Sequence record: NC_073319.1
Length of the DNA: 43,969 bases
Reading direction: 5' to 3' (one strand)
From: Escherichia phage SZH-1
Shown here: positions 7,959 to 16,435 of the stretch, piece by piece
Position numbering within the stretch: position 1 is the first letter of the stretch
Layout of the letters: every line of letters begins with the position of its first letter
Made by a program: the position numbers and the translations under genes
The notes under the pieces: generated by a model
What the model saw: only the letters and a program-made list of their open reading frames with translations
What the model was told of the DNA's origin: nothing
The model's database searches: none

Positions 7959-8129
7959 ATGACACAGAATGAAGTAGCTGAGCGTATCGGGGTTACTCGC
8001 CGCACGCTGAATAACTGGTTAAAGAGCGGGAAGTTCCCGGATTGTTGTATCCGCATTATGGGTCGCCGCCAGCCTGGTACGTTCGACCCGGAGAAAGTGG
8101 AAGCGTGGATTAAGGAGAACGTGAAATGA
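7959..8129 (+). CDS. AlpA-like HTH DNA-binding protein
   Basis: ATG at 7959 (listed ORF begins at TTG 7926); MTQNEVAERIGVTRRTLNNWLKSGKFP matches the AlpA/excisionase-type HTH pattern. Confidence 0.6.
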   Translation: MTQNEVAERIGVTRRTLNNWLKSGKFPDCCIRIMGRRQPGTFDPEKVEAWIKENVK

Positions 8130-8359
8130 CCGAGTTCCAGTCACGTGTATTCACGGCGGTCGTTTCATTAACACGTAAAAAAGGGTCGTGCAGCGTTATC
8201 GACTTGCGCCGTAGTTATTTTAAGTACTATAGTTCAGCCGTTATTGAAGGGTCGTTAAAGGCGCTGGTTAAATATGGTGTCGTGAAAAACGTTGGCGGGA
8301 AATATAGTGCCGTTGCTGAAGTTCGCGGAATGGCGGCCACTTTAGAAGACCTGGAATAA
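8126..8359 (+). CDS. Hypothetical protein with C-terminal ...TLEDLE tail
   Basis: ATGA overlap with upstream gene; shares the acidic EDLE C-terminus with two other replication proteins. Confidence 0.5.
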   Translation: MTEFQSRVFTAVVSLTRKKGSCSVIDLRRSYFKYYSSAVIEGSLKALVKYGVVKNVGGKYSAVAEVRGMAATLEDLE

Positions 8360-8417
8360 AAGAAAGCCCCGACGCGGTGAACGCCGAGGCTAAATTACTT
8401 GCTGAAGGAAATACAAC

Positions 8418-10661
8418 ATGTCCGATGTAATTTTATCCTACTCGTGGTCTCGTCGCAACGCGCGGGCAGAGAAAAAGGATATAAACGTCAGAACTACACA
8501 CACGGCAACACTGGACGACCTGAAAGAGTTAATCCAGCCGCTCGATGCTGTTCGTGATGGGATTAACCCGAAGACCGCGCCCGGTTATATCACTGCCGCG
8601 TGTGACTCGACGCACAGCACCGTAAAAGACCCGGAAACAGGAGACTTTAAGCAGGCGCGTAAAGGCTTTTTCTATCGCTGCGACGCGTCTGTAAGCAAAT
8701 CGTCGCTGGCGTATCTGGACTTCGACAACGCAACGCCGGAAGAGTATCAGGAAGCGGTGCGCCTGGTTAAGCGCAGCCGCCGGGCTATGTGTCTCTATAC
8801 CACGGCATCACATACCGATGAGTCCCCGCGCTTTCGCGTCGTCATGCCGCTGGGCCACCCTGTTGAAGGCGGCGACATCATCCGCGTTCGCCATGGATTG
8901 TTGGAACACTTCTTCAAAGGTATGGGCGCCGACCGCAGCGGTTTTACCCTGTCCCAGCCGATGTACCTGCCGCCAGTTGGCTCTACCGTTATCTGGTCGC
9001 GTCGCAACGACCTGATTGACCCGGACGAGTTACTGGAAGGCATCCCGGATTACGAGGTAAGCAGCGCATCGGATTACCAGATACCGGAAGAACTGCGCAC
9101 CGTGTTTACCGATGCGTTCGAGGCACTGGCGTTTGAATACGGCGGCATCATGACACCACGCGGCCTTAAGATGCCAGCTACACCAGAACACGCAGAGAAC
9201 TACAGCGACCCGACCCCTCGCCCGGATGACTTCCTGCTGTGTTTCCCGCGTGAGGGCTACGAAGCGCCTAACGTAACCATGATTCACGACACCGACATTA
9301 CAGCAACCGAAGGAATGTCGCCGAAAGAGGTGTGGAGATACGCGTGCGATGCGACCGGGCTGCCATTCAGTGAAGTCGCCGAGGCTATCGGCTGGGGTGC
9401 ACGTGAATATGTCTCATGCAGCCTCGACGACCTGGAAGATGGTGATGAGGACTCAGAGGAGGACGAGTTACCGGAACCGGTAAAGGCTGATTTCGTCGTT
9501 GAGGGGTATATGCCGTCGGATTGTATCTGGGATATTGTTGGGGAATCAGGCACGTACAAATCATTCTATACGCTGGGTATGATGTATCTCAGCGCCGCCG
9601 GATACCGGTTTGCTGGCGCTGACACGCAGCGTTGCCACCACTTCTATATCGACGGTGAGGGGGGCGCAGCCACACGTACACGTATTGACGCGCTCGCGGC
9701 TAAATACGGCGCAGAGGGTAAAGATTATGTACACGTCATCGACATGGGCGAAGTCGGCAAACTTAAAAGCCTGATTAAGTTAATGCGCGAAACTGCGGGC
9801 GATGAACCTATCGGCATGGTCGCGTTCGACACCCTTAACCAGACCCTGGCCCTGACGATTGATAAGTTCGACGAGAACAGCTCATCAACGGCAATCGGTA
9901 TGGGTAAAGTTATCGCCATCCTGAAAGAAGTACGTGATGCGACTAAAGCCGCGGTGGGCGTCGTCCACCATACACCGAAGGGTGGAAAGAAAGCCCGCGG
10001 TAGTGGGGCGCTGTATGCGGGCGTCGACGTGGAACTGACAATCGAACGCGCCACTGACCGTCAGATAAACGTATACCACTCTAAATTTAAGCATGGGCCT
10101 CAACAGAAGACGGTTGGCATGGTGCTGGAGTCGGTACAGTTCCGTGAAGCGCCACCACCGAAAGAGTACCGTGCGGTTGAGTTCCTCGGTAGCACAGAGG
10201 AATACGGCACAATCGTAAACCTCGACCTGCCGGAACCGCACAAGGCGCTTGTGCTGATGCCGTGGGGCTTCGAGCCGTTCAAAACTGACGAGGAGAAAGA
10301 GCGGGAAGAAGGGATGACAAAGGAAGGTAAAGAAAACGTAAAGAATGCCGTAAAACGTGGGAAGGATGAAGGAAGGAAGGAATCCATACTCGCCGCGCTG
10401 GAAGACCTGCAACAGTCTGACGACACCGGACGAGGTTTTACCCAACGGCAGATAGTATCGAACTCGGGTGACCATGCCATCACTAACCACCATCTCGAGA
10501 AGATGCTGAAAGACGGTGAGTTGATGCTAGGATGTGATGCTAACGGCGAGGTTATCCCCGGTACATACCGGATACCGGAAAAGATGGGTGACAGATTAAG
10601 ACCGAAGACAATATACGAACCAAATGAAATGCTGGTGGTTACAGAGGAGGATTTGGAATAG
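8418..10661 (+). CDS. Primase-helicase-like replication protein
   Basis: N-terminal primase-like region with LDFDN; C-terminal RecA-like NTPase with Walker A GESGTYKS and Walker-B-like VAFDTL; ends VTEEDLE. Confidence 0.8.
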   Translation: MSDVILSYSWSRRNARAEKKDINVRTTHTATLDDLKELIQPLDAVRDGINPKTAPGYITAACDSTHSTVKDPETGDFKQARKGFFYRCDASVSKSSLAYLDFDNATPEEYQEAVRLVKRSRRAMCLYTTASHTDESPRFRVVMPLGHPVEGGDIIRVRHGLLEHFFKGMGADRSGFTLSQPMYLPPVGSTVIWSRRNDLIDPDELLEGIPDYEVSSASDYQIPEELRTVFTDAFEALAFEYGGIMTPRGLKMPATPEHAENYSDPTPRPDDFLLCFPREGYEAPNVTMIHDTDITATEGMSPKEVWRYACDATGLPFSEVAEAIGWGAREYVSCSLDDLEDGDEDSEEDELPEPVKADFVVEGYMPSDCIWDIVGESGTYKSFYTLGMMYLSAAGYRFAGADTQRCHHFYIDGEGGAATRTRIDALAAKYGAEGKDYVHVIDMGEVGKLKSLIKLMRETAGDEPIGMVAFDTLNQTLALTIDKFDENSSSTAIGMGKVIAILKEVRDATKAAVGVVHHTPKGGKKARGSGALYAGVDVELTIERATDRQINVYHSKFKHGPQQKTVGMVLESVQFREAPPPKEYRAVEFLGSTEEYGTIVNLDLPEPHKALVLMPWGFEPFKTDEEKEREEGMTKEGKENVKNAVKRGKDEGRKESILAALEDLQQSDDTGRGFTQRQIVSNSGDHAITNHHLEKMLKDGELMLGCDANGEVIPGTYRIPEKMGDRLRPKTIYEPNEMLVVTEEDLE

Positions 10662-10662
10662 G

Positions 10663-10689
10663 TAAAAAGAAAGGGGCGTTAAGCCCCTT
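10663..10689 (-). terminator. Terminator of the XRE regulator transcript
   Basis: Hairpin AAGGGGC-gttaa-GCCCCTT overlapping the XRE stop codon, followed on the minus strand by TCTTTTT. Confidence 0.45.
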
Positions 10690-10894
10690 CACCGAACGCC
10701 AGCCACTTGGCGTCTACTTGCAGCACTTCCGCCAGTTTAAACAGCGTTGCCGGGCGGACGTCCTGAGTTACCCCGAGTGCGAGCTGGTTAATCGCACCCT
10801 GGGAAACGCCGGCCAGGACAGCCAGACGGCGCTGTGAGATGCCGAGTTCTTTACGGCGTTGTTCTACACGGATGCCTAGTTCAGATGGTTGCAT
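10679..10894 (-). CDS. XRE-family (Cro/CI-type) HTH transcriptional regulator
   Basis: RRKELGISQRRLAVLAGVSQGAINQLALG is a classic XRE HTH; AAGGAG RBS; divergent from a consensus promoter. Confidence 0.75.
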   Translation of the reverse strand: MQPSELGIRVEQRRKELGISQRRLAVLAGVSQGAINQLALGVTQDVRPATLFKLAEVLQVDAKWLAFGEGA

Positions 10895-10922
10895 GTTAAT
10901 TACTCCTTAGTCAGTTGATATG

Positions 10923-10937
10923 TGAATAGTACCATAT
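10923..10937 (-). promoter_or_regulatory. Operator-like dyad GAATAG-tacc-ATATT with TACTAT -10 upstream of the XRE gene
   Basis: -10-like TACTAT at 10925..10930 on the minus strand; no clear -35. Confidence 0.4.
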
Positions 10938-10958
10938 TAATTATTTTAGAAAAGCCCA

Positions 10959-10988
10959 TTGACAACCTGAATAGTTAGCTATTATAGT
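10959..10988 (+). promoter_or_regulatory. Near-consensus sigma70 promoter TTGACA-N17/18-TATAGT with dyad GAATAG-ttag-CTATT in the spacer
   Basis: TTGACA at 10959..10964, TATAGT at 10983..10988; near-identical copy at 13237. Confidence 0.65.
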
Positions 10989-11019
10989 TAGCCCATACCA
11001 AACGAGAGGAGAGAAACAA

Positions 11020-11508
11020 ATGTTAGAACAATTTTTAAAATTACTGGAACGTTTCGTAGTTGCGCACGAACTGATTGCCGCGAATAGCGTGAAACAACCT
11101 GTGTATGAACTTAAGGCAGATGTAAACATCGCAGATAGTGTTCGTGATGTTGTTGTGAAAGAAGTAACGAAAGAAATCCCGGTAGAAGGTGAAGACACCG
11201 TTGACACTAAACCAGCAGAAGAAGAGAAGCCGAAGCGCAAGCCGCGTAAAGCTAAAGTAGAGGAGCCAACGCCAGAGCCGGAAGAAGAGAAAGAAGAAGT
11301 CGATTACCAGTCTCTGCGCGACCAGATTCAGGCTATCGACGATGCAATTAACGAAGGTCCGAGCGATGCCGCGTGCGATGATTCCGATGAACTGCTGGAA
11401 GAGTTTACCGGTAAGAAGATGAAGATTGCTGCGATTAAAGACGAAGACCTGGCTGAGTACCTGGAACGCCTGACGGCAATCAAGAACAAGTATTTTGAAG
11501 AAGAATAA
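11020..11508 (+). CDS. Highly acidic protein (162 aa)
   Basis: Long D/E-rich stretches, ends ...KYFEEE; first gene downstream of the consensus promoter. Confidence 0.55.
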   Translation: MLEQFLKLLERFVVAHELIAANSVKQPVYELKADVNIADSVRDVVVKEVTKEIPVEGEDTVDTKPAEEEKPKRKPRKAKVEEPTPEPEEEKEEVDYQSLRDQIQAIDDAINEGPSDAACDDSDELLEEFTGKKMKIAAIKDEDLAEYLERLTAIKNKYFEEE

Positions 11509-11514
11509 CTATCT

Positions 11515-11531
11515 GGCGGCCTTCGGGCCGC
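11515..11531 (+). promoter_or_regulatory. Intergenic RNA hairpin with UUCG loop
   Basis: GCGGCC-ttcg-GGCCGC followed by only TTT. Confidence 0.35.
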
Positions 11532-11551
11532 TTTAACTGAGGGTCGGAAAT

Positions 11552-11824
11552 ATGATTTACCAACTCTATCGCGCCGTAGACAGGCGGGATAACACAGAGG
11601 CGCTATGGCTATTGCGTGCGCCGTCCGGTGCGCACCAGATGGAAGAGATGGCGTACTTAGGCAAAGTACCGCGGCCTAAAGATATAGGCCGTCACGTGTC
11701 GCAGATTAAGCGCACGACTTTCGCAAAACCTGACTTTTATGTCTTCGAGTCGATGTATAGCTGGGCTATGCATTGCCAGCACCAGACCAGACATCTAATT
11801 GACCAGTGGGAGAACAGGGCATGA
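11552..11824 (+). CDS. Hypothetical protein (90 aa)
   Basis: ATG with GAGGG RBS; stop overlaps the next gene's ATG. Confidence 0.5.
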   Translation: MIYQLYRAVDRRDNTEALWLLRAPSGAHQMEEMAYLGKVPRPKDIGRHVSQIKRTTFAKPDFYVFESMYSWAMHCQHQTRHLIDQWENRA

Positions 11825-13062
11825 TTTTAAAAGAACGCGGCGGCAATAACGATGTTCACGCATTACTGTCGCCGTCAGGTGCTAAAAAATGGCTGTCATG
11901 CGCTGCATCACTGGCCTGTGAAAAAGATATTCCTAACACGTCCGGCAAAGCTGCCGTTACAGGTACCGCGTGCCACACCATAGCAGAGATGCACCTTAAC
12001 CAGTACATCAAAGGCACTGCACTGCCGTTAGAGCGTGAAGTTGGCGCTTACGTGCTGGATGAGGGTAAAGGCCAGATTAAGGCGCTAATCAGCCCGATGA
12101 AAGGTGCGGTGCTGATTACGGCAGACATGATTGAGCAGGTGCGCAAGTACACCGACTACTGCAAAGCTGTTATCGATGTAGCGACTTACGCCAAGCTCGA
12201 GATGCGGGTAAATCTTACTGAGGTATTGCATCCTGGTTACGAAGGCGTTGAGACGTTCGGAACCGCCGACCTTGTTGCCGTTCAGGAACTGGCTAACACA
12301 GACGAGCACATGCTTATTATCGGCGACCTGAAAACGGGACGCCATCGTGTTGAAGCGAAAGAAAACAAGCAGCTTATGCTTTACGCTCTCGGTGTTTATC
12401 GCAGACTCAAGAGACGTTATAACATCACCGTGGTTCGTCTGGTAATCTTCCAGCCGTACGCCGGGGGCGCGTCGGAGTGGGACATCTCGGTTGAAGGTCT
12501 GGAACTGTTCGCTAAGTTCGCGCAGAAACGTGCCCTGTTAGCGTTAGGTGCATATTTCCGCGGTAAGAAGAACCTGAAAGCGTCGGATTTCAGGCCGTCA
12601 GTAGATGGCTGTCAGTGGTGTCGGTTCTCTGAACAGTGTGCCGCGCGTACAAAAACCGTTAACGCGGTACTGGCGGAAGAACTGGAGGATGACTTTGCAC
12701 TGGAGCTTACACCAGAGCAACTTGTGGCTGAGTACGAGAAGTTGCCGTTGTTGCGCCAGCACATCGACAAGGTTGAGAAAGCTATGGCTGCCGCTTTGCA
12801 TTCCGGTAAGAAAGTGCCGGGGTACAAACTGGTTGAAGGTCGCCCAGGTAATCGTGCGTGGAAAGATGCGGAGAAAGTGGCAGAACTCTACGGCGACAAG
12901 CTGACTAAAGAAGTGCTCATGACGCCAACCGAAGCGGTTAAAGTTGTGCCAGAAGAAGAACTGAAAGACTTCATTACCCGTAAGCCTGGCGCGCCATGCG
13001 TCACAACGGCAGACGACAAACGTCCTGAGTGGAATCAGGTAACAGAGGAGGATTTAGAATGA
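11821..13062 (+). CDS. PD-(D/E)XK nuclease, Cas4/RecB-like, with 4-Cys cluster
   Basis: ATG at 11821; nuclease core ...DLVAV...IIGDLKTGRH...; Cys residues WLSCAASLAC and CQWCRFSEQC; ends VTEEDLE. Confidence 0.7.
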   Translation: MILKERGGNNDVHALLSPSGAKKWLSCAASLACEKDIPNTSGKAAVTGTACHTIAEMHLNQYIKGTALPLEREVGAYVLDEGKGQIKALISPMKGAVLITADMIEQVRKYTDYCKAVIDVATYAKLEMRVNLTEVLHPGYEGVETFGTADLVAVQELANTDEHMLIIGDLKTGRHRVEAKENKQLMLYALGVYRRLKRRYNITVVRLVIFQPYAGGASEWDISVEGLELFAKFAQKRALLALGAYFRGKKNLKASDFRPSVDGCQWCRFSEQCAARTKTVNAVLAEELEDDFALELTPEQLVAEYEKLPLLRQHIDKVEKAMAAALHSGKKVPGYKLVEGRPGNRAWKDAEKVAELYGDKLTKEVLMTPTEAVKVVPEEELKDFITRKPGAPCVTTADDKRPEWNQVTEEDLE

Positions 13063-13232
13063 TGGTTTATATTCTCACGCGGTATCACCGCCGATACTCT
13101 ATTCAAGAACTTGATATTGTTTCTGTTCACGCTAAACGCGCCGACGCCGACAAAATTGCGGAAGAGAAGAACTCAAAGCATGAGGCGGTGCAGCCCTATA
13201 TTTATAAGGTAGTTCCGAAGAAACTTAAATAA
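13059..13232 (+). CDS. Hypothetical protein (58 aa)
   Basis: ATG overlapping the upstream stop, preceded by GAGGAGG. Confidence 0.45.
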   Translation: MMVYILTRYHRRYSIQELDIVSVHAKRADADKIAEEKNSKHEAVQPYIYKVVPKKLK

Positions 13233-13236
13233 AGTG

Positions 13237-13265
13237 TTGACACCTGAATAGTTAGCTATTATAGT
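13237..13265 (+). promoter_or_regulatory. Near-consensus sigma70 promoter TTGACA-N17-TATAGT with the same spacer dyad
   Basis: About 30 nt identical to the promoter at 10959; upstream of the SSB-like gene. Confidence 0.65.
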
Positions 13266-13323
13266 TCTAATCACTGGCCGGGCAGTTTCCCGGAGTAAAC
13301 GAAACTGAAAAGCGAGAAATCAA

Positions 13324-13950
13324 ATGGGACTGAAATTAAATCTGCGTAAAGTAAACACTGCATGGGTTAACGTATTTGAACGCGAAAAAGACCGTGAAAA
13401 CGACGATGGCTCAATCACTAAAGGCCAGTACAGCGCGACTATTATCCTGCCGTCCGACCACGCACAAATCGACGCGCTCTACGACACCGTTTACGCTGTA
13501 GTTGAAGAAGCGTTAGGTGCAGCCGCCGCCGAGAAGTGGATGAAGTCCAACTACGGCGAAGGTAAGCACATGGATAAATGTGCGATTAAAGACATTGCCG
13601 AGCGTGACAATCCGTTTGAAGACTTCCCGGAGGGCTTCTACTTCAAAGCGAAGGCACAGAAACAGCCGCTGATTGTAACCTCTAAAAAAGGTGAGACTCA
13701 GGTAGAGCAGGACTTCAACGTAGACGGCGAACAGATTGAAGGTGAACAAGTTTACAGCGGCTGCGTCGCTAACGTAAGCGTCGAAATCTGGTTCAGCCAG
13801 AAATATAAAGTCCTCGGCGTTAACCTGCTGGCGATTAAGTACGTCGGGGAAGGTAAAGCGTTCGGTGGTTCTAAAGTCGCTGCAAGCGTCAACGACCTTG
13901 AAGACGACGAAGAGGATGAAGCGCCGCGCCGCGAACGTCGCCGTCGCTAA
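13324..13950 (+). CDS. T7 gp2.5-like single-stranded DNA-binding protein
   Basis: Blocks align by eye with T7 gp2.5 (YSATIILP, PLIVTSKKGE, GVNLLAIKYVGEG...FGG); acidic DLEDDEEDE then basic RRERRRR C-terminus. Confidence 0.55.
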   Translation: MGLKLNLRKVNTAWVNVFEREKDRENDDGSITKGQYSATIILPSDHAQIDALYDTVYAVVEEALGAAAAEKWMKSNYGEGKHMDKCAIKDIAERDNPFEDFPEGFYFKAKAQKQPLIVTSKKGETQVEQDFNVDGEQIEGEQVYSGCVANVSVEIWFSQKYKVLGVNLLAIKYVGEGKAFGGSKVAASVNDLEDDEEDEAPRRERRRR

Positions 13951-13970
13951 TATCTGAATCAATTTAACTA

Positions 13971-13992
13971 AGGCCCTTCATTGGGCCTTTTT
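13971..13992 (+). terminator. Intrinsic terminator after the SSB-like gene
   Basis: AGGCCC-ttcatt-GGGCCT followed by TTTTT. Confidence 0.6.
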
Positions 13993-14006
13993 ACTAAGGG
14001 TCGAAA

Positions 14007-14165
14007 ATGATGTTTTTCTGTAAGCACGTATACCGATATATGAAGCCACTTCCGTGGTACGCGGACGAGTACCGTGCCGGGTACAGGCATGTGTGGATTT
14101 GCCGTGATTGTATGAAAATAAGACTCAGCGAAACTAAGGCACTGGATTTAAGGAAAAAGAAATGA
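14007..14165 (+). CDS. Hand-called small ORF (52 aa) coupled to the polymerase gene
   Basis: ATG with AAGGG upstream; contains WICRDC; stop overlaps the polymerase ATG. Confidence 0.35.
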   Translation: MMFFCKHVYRYMKPLPWYADEYRAGYRHVWICRDCMKIRLSETKALDLRKKK

Positions 14166-16435
14166 GCTACTTATACCTGGACTTTGAAACATTCTCCGAA
14201 GCCGATTTAAAGAAAGTTGGCTCCTACGCTTATGCTGAACACCCGTCGACCGAAGTGCTCATCTGTACCTATGCTTTTGACGACAAGCCTGTGCATATAT
14301 GGGATTGCACAGACGGCAGCGACATGCCGGGTGATTTGCATCGCGCGTTACGCCGCCTGGTTAAGCCAAACAGCCGCATCAAGATGGTGTGGCACAACGG
14401 TGGACTTTTCGATAGGCTCATCATGAAACACTGCTGGGGCTTTGATATTCCGGTAAGCAATACCATCGACACTATGATTTGGGCGTTCCGTCACGCGCTG
14501 CCAGGGTCACTTGATGCGTTGTGCGAAGTGCTGGGCGTGTCTGCAGACAACGCGAAAGATAAACGCGGAAAGGCGCTGATTCAGCGTTTCTCTAAACCGA
14601 CGCCGAAGAACTACAAAATCCGCCGTTACACCGCTGAAACACACCCGGACGAGTGGGCGCTGTTCATCAAGTACGCCGTGAGCGACATCACTGCGATGCG
14701 TGAAGTGTTCCATAAGCTGCCGCGTTGGGGTAACTCCGAGTTCGAAGACCGCGTACTGGAACTGGACCAGTTAATCAACGACCGCGGGTTCTTTGTCGAC
14801 ACGGCTCTTGCGGAGGCGGCGGTAGCGGCAGTTGAACGCCACAAGCAAGAGCTAAAAAATGAGGCCCGCGCGAAATTCGGGGGGAAGCTAACGGGGAAAG
14901 ACTTCCTGCCCATCCTTCGGGAGCTGGCACCGGCCTACAATATTTATAATGCGCAGAAGGCAACGCTCGAAGGTTTGCTAGAGGACGACGACTTGCCTGA
15001 CGATGCGCGCACAATCATTGAGATGCGCCTCGGTGCGGCCTCCACGGCGTCGACAAAATACAAACCGCTCCTGCTAGGACGGTCCAAAGACGGGCGCCGC
15101 CGCGGTTGCATCCAGTACGGTGGGGCAAAGCGCACTTTACGATTTGCGGGTAAAGGGTTCCAACCGCAAAACCTGTCGCGCGGGTACTACCATGACGACC
15201 CGACTAACGAGGAAAAGAAACTTGTACGCCAGCCGTGGGAGTCCGACGAAGACTGGAACCGTCGTCTCAACCCCCTATCGTTCGGCATCAATCTGCTGCT
15301 AAAGGGTCGGGCGCATCGCCGTTTCGATGTGTCTAAACTAACGGCCTCGACTGTCCGCAGTTGCATCATCCCGGAAAAAGGTAATAAGTTGCTCGTTGCC
15401 GACTACTCAAACGTGGAAGGGCGCGGGCTAGCCTGGACGGCGGGGGAGACGTCCGCCCTTGAGACGTTCCGCGCGGGGATTGATATCTATTGCGCCACAG
15501 CTGGTAAGATGTTCGGCATGGACCCCGTAGAACTAAAAGCCACCCGTAAGGACCTACGTCAGGTCGGGAAATGTTGCGAGCTTGGCCTCGGCTATGAGGG
15601 GGGTGTAGGGGCCTTTATGACTATGGCTAAAACTTACGGGCTGGACCTCTTTAAAATGACAGAGACAATGCGGGGCACGTTCCCCGACCACATTTGGGCG
15701 GCTACCGCCCGTGGCTACGAATGGGCCAGAATTCAGGAGGCTAAACGCCCGCCAAAGCCTGGTAAAAAAGATGAACGGGCCTCTTATGTGCTGCCTAAAG
15801 AAGTCTGGCGCACCTGCGACGCCATTAAGCGCATGTGGCGGGAAGCCCATCCGGAAACAGTGAAATTCTGGAATGACCTTAAGGATTCGGTGATAGCCGC
15901 CATTAGAAATCCGGGACGAGAGTTTTGGGCGGGGGCCCGAGTACGCCTTAACGGCGACAGAGCCATCCGCATCTGGCGTACTAAAGAGAAAGACAGACAG
16001 GGTAACTTTGTGCCGGGTTGGTGGTTGTGCGTGGAACTGCCGTCTGGGCGCATCATGTCCTACCCTGGTATAGGCTTAAGCGTCACTAAAGAGACTGACG
16101 AGGATGGGCGCGTAACAACTAACGTTCGCATTAAGTACCAGGGCGAAAATCAGACCACCCGCCAGTGGACAACTTTGTACACCCACGGCGGAAAATTGTG
16201 TGAAAACATCATCCAGGCGTTGTGCCGTGATTTACTGGTTAACGGACTCCTGACGGTCGAGGCGGCGGGCTACCCAATTGTACTCCACGTACATGACGAA
16301 TGTGTTGCCGAAACGCCAGACACGCCAGAGTACACGGTTAAAGAGATGGGTGACCTGCTATGCTCATTACCTGAGTGGGCCGAAGGGTTCCCGTTAACAT
16401 GGGCTGGGGAAGAGGTGTACCGTTATGCTAAGTAA
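14162..16435 (+). CDS. Family A DNA polymerase with 3'-5' exonuclease domain
   Basis: Exo motifs YLDFETFS, HNGGLFD, YAVSDI; polymerase motifs ADYSNVEGR, RQVGKCCELGLGYEGG, VLHVHDE. Confidence 0.9.
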   Translation: MSYLYLDFETFSEADLKKVGSYAYAEHPSTEVLICTYAFDDKPVHIWDCTDGSDMPGDLHRALRRLVKPNSRIKMVWHNGGLFDRLIMKHCWGFDIPVSNTIDTMIWAFRHALPGSLDALCEVLGVSADNAKDKRGKALIQRFSKPTPKNYKIRRYTAETHPDEWALFIKYAVSDITAMREVFHKLPRWGNSEFEDRVLELDQLINDRGFFVDTALAEAAVAAVERHKQELKNEARAKFGGKLTGKDFLPILRELAPAYNIYNAQKATLEGLLEDDDLPDDARTIIEMRLGAASTASTKYKPLLLGRSKDGRRRGCIQYGGAKRTLRFAGKGFQPQNLSRGYYHDDPTNEEKKLVRQPWESDEDWNRRLNPLSFGINLLLKGRAHRRFDVSKLTASTVRSCIIPEKGNKLLVADYSNVEGRGLAWTAGETSALETFRAGIDIYCATAGKMFGMDPVELKATRKDLRQVGKCCELGLGYEGGVGAFMTMAKTYGLDLFKMTETMRGTFPDHIWAATARGYEWARIQEAKRPPKPGKKDERASYVLPKEVWRTCDAIKRMWREAHPETVKFWNDLKDSVIAAIRNPGREFWAGARVRLNGDRAIRIWRTKEKDRQGNFVPGWWLCVELPSGRIMSYPGIGLSVTKETDEDGRVTTNVRIKYQGENQTTRQWTTLYTHGGKLCENIIQALCRDLLVNGLLTVEAAGYPIVLHVHDECVAETPDTPEYTVKEMGDLLCSLPEWAEGFPLTWAGEEVYRYAK

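Follow-up and report, generated by a model that had tools for sequence, protein, structure and literature searches.

Replication region and motif copies

The analysed window is the 43,969 nt sequence of Escherichia phage SZH-1 (NC_073319.1). The genes and sequence features considered here all lie on the plus strand:

8126..8359, plus strand: p77 ORF, 77 aa, C-terminus ...AATLEDLE
8339..8356, plus strand: motif copy 1, TLEDLE-COOH of p77 (coordinates checked)
8418..10661, plus strand: helicase-primase ORF, 747 aa, C-terminus ...VVTEEDLE
9420..9467, plus strand: motif copy 2, internal, SLDDLEDGDEDSEEDE, in the helicase-primase linker immediately ahead of the helicase domain
10641..10658, plus strand: motif copy 3, TEEDLE-COOH of the helicase-primase (coordinates checked)
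11806..13062, plus strand: nuclease ORF (DUF2800 PD-(D/E)XK, Cas4/RecB-like), 418 aa, C-terminus ...QVTEEDLE
13042..13059, plus strand: motif copy 4, TEEDLE-COOH of the nuclease (coordinates checked)
13324..13950, plus strand: SSB ORF (gp2.5/Enc34-type, DUF2815; ssDNA binding and annealing), 208 aa, C-terminus ...SVNDLEDDEEDEAPRRERRRR
13885..13920, plus strand: motif copy 5, proximal SSB motif SVNDLEDDEEDE, immediately after the OB fold
13921..13947, plus strand: basic SSB end APRRERRRR, clade-specific
14162..16435, plus strand: family-A DNA polymerase (Pfam DNA_pol_A match), C-terminus ...RYAK, without the motif

The original prediction that the ORFs ending at 8359, 10661 and 13062 share an EDLE tail was confirmed, the C-termini being TLEDLE, TEEDLE and TEEDLE, and the SSB tail is indeed first acidic and then basic (NDLEDDEEDE followed by APRRERRRR). 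Beyond these three tails there are two more copies, the helicase-primase linker and the SVNDLE of the SSB itself, giving five copies in four proteins (p77, helicase-primase twice, nuclease and SSB). Of the 235 six-frame ORFs with 50 aa or more, only 3 have a C-terminal [DE]L[DE], namely p77, the helicase-primase and the nuclease. The pattern [ST].[DEN]DL[DE], set post hoc after inspection of the data, has 5 matches in the 392 stop-to-stop ORFs, where shuffling within ORFs predicts 0.18, and all are confined to the four proteins; 3 matches are exactly C-terminal, where 0.003 are expected.

Proteins carrying the motif

The helicase-primase combines an N-terminal primase region with a C-terminal AAA_25/RepA-like helicase (residues 353-523, Pfam AAA_25, E=2.9e-17) and matches phrog_3228, 'replicative helicase-primase', with E=6.5e-300. 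The nuclease matches DUF2800 (E=4.6e-69) and PDDEXK_1 (E=4.2e-9). A Dhillonvirus homologue, Bas14_0045, has been described as a nuclease whose C-terminal region is disordered, and phage with truncated alleles are viable (bioRxiv 10.64898/2026.07.14.737667).

The assignment of p77 to replication is not backed by the data, and it is best described as a winged-helix protein. A Pfam search with p77 gave no match, and the family that it does match, phrog_5169, carries no assigned function. The AF2 model shows an H-H-H-beta-beta arrangement with pLDDT above 90 at residues 1-62 and low confidence at residues 63-77, so that the C-terminal tail is predicted to be disordered. The Foldseek matches are generic winged-helix domains (LexA, IdeR, HrcA, RPA32C), and a search of 1.8 billion representative proteins gave only 4 relatives.

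The SSB matches Pfam Enc34_ssDNA-bd (E=6.6e-16). Its AF2 model (pLDDT 79) has 4KLK, 5ODJ/5ODL (Enc34), 4JG2 and 1JE5 (T7 gp2.5) as best Foldseek matches, which points to an Enc34-type fold. The proximal motif is the positional homologue of AAEDDFDEL, SIDDFDFED and SDAWDEDED in other DUF2815 SSBs and reads SVDDLEDD, ANDDDLDDD, SDEDLGDDD or TDDDLGDDD in related groups. The basic end stands in place of the usual distal acidic/hydrophobic tip DD[FLM][LFM][GSN] of DUF2815 SSBs. It is found at 71 of 71 loci of the Kagunavirus-related clade and at 0 of 104 other loci; in the wider sample it occurs in 4 of 49 lineages and 14 of 136 DUF2815 homologues, confined to the clade of Kagunavirus, Jerseyvirus, the L051 group and Dhillonvirus. 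In the L051 and Dhillonvirus SSBs it is enlarged to repeated acidic/basic blocks. We suggest that the PRRERRRR end is a separate, clade-specific substitute for the distal tip, which could neutralise charge, add a contact to DNA or support head-to-tail cooperativity.

Conservation in related phages

Orthologue alignment showed that the tail is kept at 26-33% identity of the helicase-primase and 43-56% identity of the nuclease. In 75 related loci with 12,695 six-frame ORFs there are 144 C-terminal matches to [DE][DEG]DL plus 0-4 residues, of which 69 fall on nucleases, 68 on helicase-primases and the other 7 on copies of a single 63-aa ORF. A further sample of nuclease homologues ends in [ST][DE][DEG]DL plus 0-4 residues in 117 of 120 cases. 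In nuclease alignment A1 the tail lies about 8 aa downstream of a conserved DKRP and lines up with ...EDDFDKL and ...DDFEELNS in distant nucleases. The helicase-primase tail is retained although the preceding 30 aa diverge (TTEGDLE in Jerseyvirus, ASDEDLNS in the L051 group, ATDDDLKD in Dhillonvirus), and the linker copy is kept at one alignment position in all five related groups (VTCDEEDLADEE in Jerseyvirus, QCTDEDLDDDP in the L051 group, VCTDADLDNEP in Dhillonvirus, VCTDFDLENEP in L073). The p77 tail is kept as ATLEDLE in Kagunavirus-like and ATPEDLE in Jerseyvirus-like loci.

The tails might have no common receptor at all, each being a private DNA-mimicking or solubilising extension, or their similarity might be a DNA-level by-product of a ribosome-binding site or of gene conversion between the two 23-nt segments. 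DNA-binding proteins often have acidic tails, and the sequence GAGGAGG (13045-13051) in the nuclease tail doubles as the Shine-Dalgarno of an overlapping downstream ORF (13059-13232, ATG at 13059). The near-identity proposed for the 3' ends of the two TEEDLE genes is real, with 21 of 23 nt the same (10637-10659 versus 13038-13060), but limited to one haplotype. The codons argue otherwise: other Kagunavirus-like loci, of the alternative nuclease haplotype without the overlapping ORF, spell the nuclease tail AGT GAA GAA GAT TTR GAA TAA, and p77 writes the same peptide with GAA GAC CTG/CTT GAA across loci (GAA GAC CTG GAA in the window). The helicase-primase tail shows many synonymous variants between loci and has no downstream plus-strand gene to serve. 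Since the tails persist in distant relatives with different codons, the conserved unit is the peptide rather than the DNA, and the synonymous turnover and distinct codon sets suggest that selection acts at the peptide level. Together with the covariation described below, this makes the absence of a common receptor very improbable.

Covariation of tails within genomes

Tails were compared in 49 lineages that have a module of DUF2800 nuclease and DUF2815 SSB. Nuclease and SSB tails are more similar within genomes (25.65) than between them (19.87; permutation p<=1e-5, relatedness of lineages ignored). This order-specific matching far exceeds a composition-only control (18.5 versus 17.1). An initial test of 21 lineages had given p ~5e-5 for the nuclease-SSB pair, and likewise for nuclease and primase, again by permutation with relatedness ignored. 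The hydrophobic residue Phi switches jointly in these non-homologous proteins: it is L/L in the window, F/F in most lineages, W/W in iEPS5 and BUCT551 and Y/Y in Enc34, although the changes represent few independent events, with L from one clade and W and Y from one family. Chi-like phages have DEV, DDL or DEI, depending on genus, at the end of primase, nuclease, SSB and small terminase alike, and the concordance of terminal residues within genomes over 4-6 proteins is 0.79 versus 0.19 (4 loci only).

Motif copies thus exist in the window, are conserved as peptide and vary in concert per genome. Because the tails are conserved as peptide and co-vary across non-homologous proteins, the common docking peptide of the original prediction is well supported by sequence comparison, with conservation in distant orthologues and covariation over 49 lineages. 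We give an even chance to an overall explanation, including the mechanism considered below, in which every EDLE tail is a copy of the same short, disordered peptide of acidic and hydrophobic character, (S/T)-x-(D/E)-D-L-(E), that serves as a common docking tag. An old motif of the DUF2815 SSB family, (D/E)-D-Phi-(D/E), in which Phi can be F, W, Y or L, would here be present in its Leu form. The DUF2800 nuclease, as partner, would have received a copy of it, as would, in some lineages, primase, SNF2 helicase, small proteins and small terminase.

Possible receptors

The matching within genomes suggests a common receptor, which is in all likelihood encoded by the phage. If it were a host protein, the tails could imitate the C-terminal tip of bacterial SSB (...DDDIPF) and recruit host SSB-interacting proteins to phage DNA. 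In broad terms the chemistry is the same, with a hydrophobic residue added to a run of acidic ones, and SSBs of Gram-positive phages end in ...DEDFL, ...DDLLG or ...DDLPF-like sequences. However, Salmonella enterica is host to both Jerseyvirus, with EDLE-type tails, and Chivirus, with tails of the WDDEDEV type; the two differ in tail type while each is internally consistent, which makes a shared host receptor unlikely. Close genera also differ (Y in Enc34, W in iEPS5), and the window tail ends in Glu, without the terminal hydrophobic carboxylate that a host-type SSB-tip pocket uses. Host mimicry is therefore improbable.

Docking on the polymerase was the mechanism originally proposed by analogy with T7. 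The tails of T7 gp2.5 (...SWDEDDEESEEADEDGDF) and gp4 (...STDWSNDTDF) compete with each other for the front basic patch of gp5 and a patch in its thioredoxin-binding domain (PMC12339929; bioRxiv 10.64898/2026.05.20.726333). By analogy, the acidic tails of helicase-primase, nuclease, p77 and SSB would compete for a basic patch on the phage polymerase (14162-16435). The window SSB is of T7 type, and in every lineage examined the polymerase is the large replisome protein without the tail. The distribution of polymerases argues against this analogy. Family-B polymerase, unrelated to family A, is used in 20 of the 49 lineages, and nuclease and SSB tails still match there (p=0.0006, relatedness ignored). 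Contigs L108 and L109 share their tails with phage SS2019XI, and their nuclease is about 99% identical to the one encoded there, but they carry PolB where SS2019XI has PolA; matched tails survive the PolA/PolB swap between L083 and L108/L109. Such recombinants may be too recent for re-adaptation, and a generic contact between acidic tail and basic patch could be compatible with both polymerase types. Ending in Leu-Glu, the window tails lack the terminal aromatic residue essential in T7. When the window polymerase was aligned to T7's front-basic-patch region, no thioredoxin-binding domain or conserved basic patch was recognised, and this region is a variable clade-specific insertion that is acidic in Dhillonvirus. 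We regard polymerase docking as a possible but rather unlikely second choice.

A partner swap involving the basic SSB tail was also proposed. On this reading the PRRERRRR end of the SSB would bind the EDLE tails electrostatically. The charges are complementary, and the clade with the basic end also has the motif in its Leu form, but this co-occurrence amounts to one evolutionary event. The shared tails are much older than the basic end and are present in the 45 of 49 lineages that lack it. Moreover, the SSB keeps its own acidic motif, and this copy, adjoining the basic stretch, would be the closest partner available to it. A shaped pocket, rather than a diffuse charge contact, is favoured by the invariant D-L and the S/T position. 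The swap can accordingly be given little credence.

The best candidate for the receptor is the ssDNA-binding groove of the SSB, because the motif sits there in Enc34 crystals and the matching survives PolA/PolB swaps; we put its chances at slightly below even. In Enc34 ORF6 the C-termini bury 842 Å2 in the sheets of neighbouring molecules, and the last 11 residues are invisible (PMC5686142), so that the traceable end would be ...SDAYD, i.e. the proximal motif. Comparable contacts were reported for 4JG2, 4KLK and T7 gp2.5 (PMC5686142), and the title of Marintcheva 2008, cited in the same paper, states that the T7 gp2.5 tail competes with ssDNA for gp2.5's own binding surface. The Enc34 contact could be a packing artefact. 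The AF2 monomer of the window SSB has a 4-residue helix at VNDL (residues 189-192, pLDDT ~60); it does not confirm docking, since pLDDT in the tail is only 51-61.

With the SSB groove as receptor, a mechanism can be considered in which the proximal motif of free SSB fills either the groove of its own molecule or that of a neighbour. Through tails that resemble this motif, the helicase-primase hexamer, the nuclease that resects DNA and the winged-helix protein would hold DNA-free SSB. As ssDNA would compete for the same groove, the SSB would be released onto the single strand that these proteins expose. If the tails do occupy the ssDNA groove, the same competition would be awkward for tethering enzymes to SSB-coated DNA. 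The phenotype of a tail deletion may be mild because the nuclease is dispensable in a related phage.

Comparison with known systems

As in T7, there is an OB-fold SSB of the T7 type, and disordered acidic tails with a key hydrophobic residue occur on SSB and helicase-primase and are alike within a phage. In the window, Leu with Glu after it takes the place of a terminal Phe as the key residue, the SSB copy is internal with a basic tail after it, and the tag is also present on a PD-(D/E)XK nuclease, on a small winged-helix protein and a second time within the helicase-primase. The polymerases differ as well, as described above, with another polymerase family in sister lineages.

In bacteria the SSB bears the tip and its clients bear the pockets. 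The phage system resembles this hub in that a short acidic-hydrophobic peptide would organise DNA-metabolism proteins around SSB, but the logic appears inverted: clients bear the tip, and SSB or another single protein would bear the pocket. The motif is also specific to each phage lineage.

Lambda Exo-Beta and RecE-RecT are two-component phage recombinases with a contact between exonuclease and annealase. Here too the nuclease gene lies close upstream of that of a single-strand annealing protein, and a likely physical link would load the annealase on resected DNA. For the nuclease, this loading would correspond to the way exonuclease and annealase are coupled in lambda Exo-Beta. The proteins belong to other families, and the proposed link is a terminal linear motif of the nuclease that copies the tail of the annealase. 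The duf2800-gp2.5 pairing has been described, with DUF2815 as the annealing protein of a duf2800-gp2.5-polA module (PMC8093625).

The Enc34 ORF6/DUF2815 (PF10991) family of gp2.5-like SSBs agrees with the window SSB in Pfam match, fold and a proximal acidic/hydrophobic motif right after the OB fold, the motif that would lie in the neighbour's beta-sheet groove in crystals. It differs in having the typical EDDF... followed by the distal tip where the window has NDLE... and PRRERRRR. The presence of the same peptide on the neighbouring nuclease, primase and terminase is not reported in published Enc34/DUF2815 work. Because it varies in concert between proteins in related phages, the EDLE peptide is probably a private docking tag of the phage replication/recombination module, and its target is most likely the phage's own single-strand DNA-binding protein.

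Replication module

The region is about 90-93% identical to Kagunavirus-like E. coli siphophages, with the Salmonella Jerseyvirus next closest. Its replication and recombination module (genes 8126-16435) runs rightward in the following order.

8126-8359, p77, a 77-aa winged-helix protein
8418-10661, AAA_25 helicase-primase
10679-10894, minus strand, HTH_3 gene (Cro/CI-type), reversed within the rightward module
11020-11508, acidic 162-aa protein (phrog_3127), followed by a 90-aa ORF
11806-13062, PD-(D/E)XK nuclease (DUF2800), followed by a 57-aa ORF
13324-13950, Enc34/gp2.5-type SSB (DUF2815)
14007-14165, 52-aa ORF
14162-16435, family-A polymerase (PolA)

The nuclease matches PF10926 (E=4.6e-69) and PF12705 (E=4.2e-9), and in the nuclease alignment (A1) D174, K176 and Q189 are conserved columns, together with Cys columns. 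The SSB matches PF10991 over residues 5-198 (E=6.6e-16; 58.9 bits, cut-off 26). Its AF2 model (pLDDT 79) has helices at 49-64 and 66-76 and shows the OB fold of Enc34 ORF6 and T7 gp2.5, in which beta2 is followed by a long capping helix, and its top nine Foldseek matches were to 4KLK, 5ODJ/5ODL/5ODK, 4JG2 and 1JE5 (E 2e-9 to 2.7e-4). For p77, residues 1-62 are modelled with confidence as a winged helix of three helices and two strands, and the 15-residue tail that follows has low confidence. Foldseek returned generic winged-helix domains for it and nothing more specific, and a homologue search found four relatives only. Possible roles of p77 are those of a DNA-binding regulator or of an origin-binding protein, and it can count only as a putative replication protein.

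Several features of the region stand apart from the tails. In the related phage Bas73 the position of the HTH_3 gene is occupied by different small plus-strand ORFs. Directly after the stop codons of p77 and the helicase-primase, AAAGAAAG is followed by GC-rich hairpins (8365-8391 and 10669-10690), and both sites score as minus-strand intrinsic terminators. The terminator at 10669-10690 would stop the reverse HTH_3 gene, while no minus-strand gene is evident for the one at 8365-8391 to end. Two sites on the plus strand resemble sigma-70 promoters and come close to the consensus (TTGACA, 17-18 nt spacer, TATAGT; 11/12 matches); they lie at 10959-10988, upstream of the acidic 162-aa ORF, and at 13237-13265, upstream of the SSB gene. 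The 52-aa ORF before the polymerase contains Cys pairs (CKH..., CRDC), which suggest a small zinc-binding protein.

A shared acidic motif in four proteins

The acidic C-termini of p77 (TLEDLE), the helicase-primase and the nuclease (both VTEEDLE), and the acidic-then-basic end of the SSB, are exactly as the original prediction described them, and the near-identical DNA it noted at the two TEEDLE tails amounts to 21 of 23 common nucleotides. No other ORF among the 235 six-frame ORFs of at least 50 aa ends in [DE]L[DE]. The pattern [ST].[DEN]DL[DE], which was chosen after the data had been seen, occurs five times in the whole window against 0.18 expected, and three times exactly at a C-terminus against 0.003 expected. 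The two further copies are internal: SLDDLEDGDEDSEEDE (9420-9467) in the linker between the primase and helicase halves, and SVNDLE of the SSB. The SSB therefore carries the same motif and not its opposite. The motif peptides of the window include EMLVVTEEDLE, RGMAATLEDLE, VSCSLDDLEDGDE and SVNDLEDDEE.

In p77 and the SSB the motif falls in segments predicted to be disordered (pLDDT 47-64 for the p77 tail and 51-61 for the SSB tail). The modelled SSB tail forms a four-residue helix on VNDL, which is suggestive at most of docking. The C-terminus of a homologue of the nuclease has been described as disordered (bioRxiv 10.64898/2026.07.14.737667).

Conservation among relatives

Across 74 related loci taken from viral contigs, the helicase-primase and nuclease tails are kept in every group, so that the orthologue comparison upholds a conserved tail. 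The linker copy and the SSB copy are each retained in all five groups.

Table. C-terminal tails of the helicase-primase and the nuclease
Kagunavirus: helicase-primase VTEEDLE; nuclease VTEEDLE
Jerseyvirus: helicase-primase TTEGDLE; nuclease VTEDDLEA
L051 group (Klebsiella-phage-like): helicase-primase ASDEDLNS; nuclease ASDEDLS
Dhillonvirus: helicase-primase ATDDDLKD; nuclease ATDEDLSNE

The D-L and S/T positions are near-invariant; the residue before D is E, G, D or R, and the final E can be absent or followed by 1-4 added residues. In the distant groups overall identity of the helicase-primase is down to 26-33%, and the 30 residues preceding the tail are unrelated. As in short linear motifs, the motif is kept while its flanks diverge, and it covaries among its carriers. 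The motif stands at the end of 144 of the 12,695 six-frame ORFs of the related loci, namely in 69 nucleases, 68 helicase-primases and seven copies of a 63-aa ORF. The last is a basic ORF of 62-63 aa between SSB and polymerase in the L051 group (L051:9390-9581), ending ...TATDEDLE, a carrier other than p77 and one with no Pfam or PHROG match. One nuclease (L024) ends ...EEDSE (TCG for TTG); this Leu-to-Ser change at an otherwise invariant position could be a sequencing error or a tolerated variant.

The codons of the tail are freely exchanged. The nuclease uses either ACA GAG GAG GAT TTR GAA TGA or AGT GAA GAA GAT TTR GAA TAA, and p77 uses GAA GAC CTG/CTT GAA. Where the haplotype is GAGGAGG, the next ORF starts in an overlapping ATGA, which lets this stretch of the window act as a ribosome-binding site too, and the peptide is conserved also where the haplotype is absent. 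On this comparison of codons among loci, a DNA-level repeat or gene conversion was rejected as the cause of the shared tails. A degradation tag was rejected as well, since it would not account for copies inside the SSB and in the linker; we know of no degron that resembles an acidic ...DLE end.

Shared tails beyond the clade

A tblastn search with the nuclease matched 1,535 phage records. The module was examined in 17 distant annotated phages and 93 further viral contigs, whose regions were taken singly and searched with one protein at a time. With a single SSB sequence as query, 16 close relatives only were found, and a nuclease profile search gave close relatives only among the best 120 matches listed; both served for tail counts and not for diversity. 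In phage after phage the nuclease tail repeats the proximal motif of the SSB, which follows the OB fold.

Table. Nuclease tails and SSB proximal motifs in distant phages
Staphylococcus LH1: nuclease SAEDDFDKL; SSB AAEDDFDEL…
Bacteroides C2_18_80S2P: nuclease TIDDFEELNS; SSB SIDDFDFED…
Bacillus PBC1: nuclease NSDFEGEDFDV; SSB SVDFEDEDFDI…
Paenibacillus NHScienceFair: nuclease SLEQEFAN…; SSB SLEDEFAD…
Xylella Xfas53: nuclease ATDFQDLSD; SSB VEDFEDLSN
Yersinia YeP4: nuclease ENDFENV…AESLI; SSB EDDFDEI…AESLI

Among 136 DUF2815 proteins the norm is (A/S)EDDF in the proximal position, then a linker of acidic residues and, distally, a DD[FLM][LFM][GSN] tip, which makes the EDLE of the window the form of the proximal motif that has Leu.

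In the Casjensviridae the label is found on more proteins than the nuclease and the SSB. Five Enc34 proteins have EV at the C-terminus: the primase, nuclease, SSB and small terminase as DEV, and ORF3 as EEEV. Its SNF2 helicase ends IWDDEED. Phage iEPS5 has the same habit, with ends in DEV or DDV, Pseudomonas phage SS2019XI has ends in …DDL/EDL, and Aeromonas phage BUCT551 has …DEI/DDI, helicase and small terminase included. At the internal aromatic position both Enc34 proteins have Y, and both iEPS5 proteins have W.

In Chi-like phages the acidic end of the small terminase is specific to the genus and the same as that of the replication proteins: ...ADDDEV in Enc34 (L092:10318-10893), ...VDDDEV in iEPS5 (L079:10800-11369) and ...LDDEEI in BUCT551 (L088:10665-11264). 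These sequences hint at a possible link of packaging to the SSB or a replication hub. Chi-like phages also have the full tag on the ORF immediately upstream of the nuclease (Enc34 ORF3 ...GEEEEV; SS2019XI ...GEGEDL). By eye, the C-terminal region of this ORF in distant phages resembles that of the phrog_3127 protein, which in the window ends ...KYFEEE and contains IKDEDLAEY. In Vibrio phage 1.004.O the nuclease (L090:9965-11101, ...KGTFGKVSK) and the primase (L090:12904-15393, ...PGTFGKREK) have a common non-acidic C-terminal motif; the habit of sharing a tail thus exists with quite different chemistry.

Covariation of nuclease and SSB tails

Matching was scored as the best ungapped BLOSUM62 segment between the last 16 aa of the nuclease and the last 36 aa of the SSB in 49 lineages with less than 70% nuclease identity. 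The mean score was 25.65 within and 19.87 between genomes (p<=1e-5, kinship among lineages being ignored), and the result was unchanged when the Kagunavirus clade was omitted. Shuffling the residues inside each tail removed most of the effect (18.5 versus 17.1); the signal is therefore order-specific and not compositional. A first test on 21 curated lineages agrees and shows nuclease-primase matching too. Acid-tailed ORFs within a genome agreed in their terminal residue at 0.79 versus 0.19, in four loci only. Few events lie behind the switches of the hydrophobic residue (L, F, W or Y).

Candidate receptors

Three phage-encoded receptors for the tails can be considered. The first is the basic SSB end, to which the original prediction let the EDLE tails bind in a partner swap. 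The window SSB has the proximal acidic motif followed by APRRERRRR, and lacks the wholly acidic tail and hydrophobic tip of the DUF2815 type. This basic end replaces the distal tip in all 71 Kagunavirus, Jerseyvirus, L051-group and Dhillonvirus loci and in 0 of 104 others; likewise, 120 of 136 DUF2815 homologues end acidic and only 14 close relatives end basic. The shared tails are far older and wider than this one clade, so the basic end is not their receptor in general and the partner swap is not supported. In the L051 group and Dhillonvirus (L059) the SSB tails consist of 3-4 tandem acidic-then-basic blocks, for example DDDDEDDKPRKSKKSKR repeated, giving a strongly charge-patterned disordered tail. 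We suggest that the basic end could balance charge, add a contact to DNA during annealing or allow head-to-tail cooperativity.

The second candidate is the polymerase, on which the tails would dock as in T7. It speaks for this that the SSB and the helicase-primase have acidic tails that resemble each other, as in T7, but in 20 of the 49 lineages the polymerase is of family B (phrog_1252; PDB matches to family-B enzymes) and the nuclease and SSB tails are still matched (p=0.0006). About 76 loci without PolA encode a family-B polymerase. In two contigs (L108 and L109) the nuclease is ~99% identical to that of the PolA-bearing phage SS2019XI, yet PolB stands in place of PolA; the nuclease tail is the same in L108 and differs by one residue in L109, and the SSB tail is nearly identical. 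By sequence, this looks like a recent swap of polymerase family within one module. Moreover, the C-terminal Phe is essential in T7, whereas the window tails end ...DLE, with Leu at the hydrophobic position and a terminal Glu. The polymerase aligns poorly with T7 gp5 at the front basic patch and the thioredoxin-binding domain; at the poorly aligned front-basic-patch position there is a clade-specific insertion that is variable, not basic, and acidic in Dhillonvirus. This alignment speaks neither for nor against basic patches that would receive the tails. The fetched region of Pasteurella phage PMP-GADVASU-IND encodes DUF2800, DUF2815, a VirE-type primase, VRR-NUC and SNF2 and contains no polymerase gene, the sole complete module of this sort (n=1). 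Its nuclease and SSB have no acidic tail, and the SSB ends ...QQQAAPGLGF.

The third candidate is the groove of the SSB itself. The final 11 residues of Enc34 ORF6 cannot be seen in its crystal, and the traceable end enters the concave, seven-stranded sheet of a neighbour; the area that C-termini bury in adjacent sheets is 842 A2, and similar contacts are reported for 4JG2, 4KLK and T7 gp2.5 (PMC5686142). Mapped from the Enc34 sequence, that traceable end would be …SDAYD, the proximal motif. The AF2 model and the Foldseek matches indicate that the window SSB shares this fold. DUF2815 is the annealing protein of the module (PMC8093625). Two Salmonella phage groups have different labels, which argues against a common host receptor. 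In phage recombinases the resection nuclease is normally coupled to its annealase. Because of the crystal contact, the matched tails in lineages with PolB, the host argument and the functional fit of nuclease and annealase, the SSB groove is ranked first as receptor and T7-like polymerase docking second.

A fuller reading, possible but less likely than not, is that phages with the DUF2800-DUF2815 module each use a private co-evolving label, a lineage-specific C-terminal peptide copied from the self-binding motif of the SSB. In this reading the ssDNA groove of the gp2.5-like SSB would receive as many as six unrelated proteins that handle DNA: the primase or helicase, the resection nuclease, the winged-helix protein, the SNF2 helicase, small proteins and even the small terminase.

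The DUF2800 nuclease of Bas14 (Dhillonvirus) is reported to trigger a type IX retron, and mutants that escape have it truncated (bioRxiv 10.64898/2026.07.14.737667). The nuclease is thus dispensable for plaque formation, and a tail phenotype on it may be subtle. The label could be tested in tractable E. coli phages, the Kagunavirus and Dhillonvirus isolates of the BASEL collection.

Novelty and implications

That acidic tails on SSB and helicase organise the phage replisome is known. The open-access literature on DUF2815/DUF2800, Enc34, Kagunavirus and Casjensviridae contained no report of shared tails. Features without a description in the searchable literature are a single co-varying label that extends to the DUF2800 nuclease, a second, internal site in the helicase-primase, small proteins, the small terminase and the SNF2 helicase; the motif in its Leu form; an SSB tail that is first acidic and then basic; and signs that the hub is the SSB instead of the polymerase.

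If the tag works as proposed, it would be a simple rule for protein partnerships that can be read from sequence, covering a module known from many more than a thousand sequenced phages, whose hosts are Proteobacteria, Firmicutes and Bacteroidota. Variants that differ by lineage (L, F, W, Y; terminal V, L, I) would then offer natural specificity swaps, and the SSB tails of acidic and basic blocks a model for how charge-patterned disordered tails tune SSB behaviour. The tag would give a role to small proteins that bear it (p77, Enc34 ORF3 and the 63-aa L051-group ORF among them), explain the coupling of the nuclease to the annealing SSB, and, through the small terminase of Chi-like phages, tie packaging to replication intermediates. 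The logic of the bacterial SSB hub would be inverted, with the tip on the clients and the pocket on the SSB, and the label could insulate the replication, recombination and packaging machinery of the phage from the host and from co-infecting phages.
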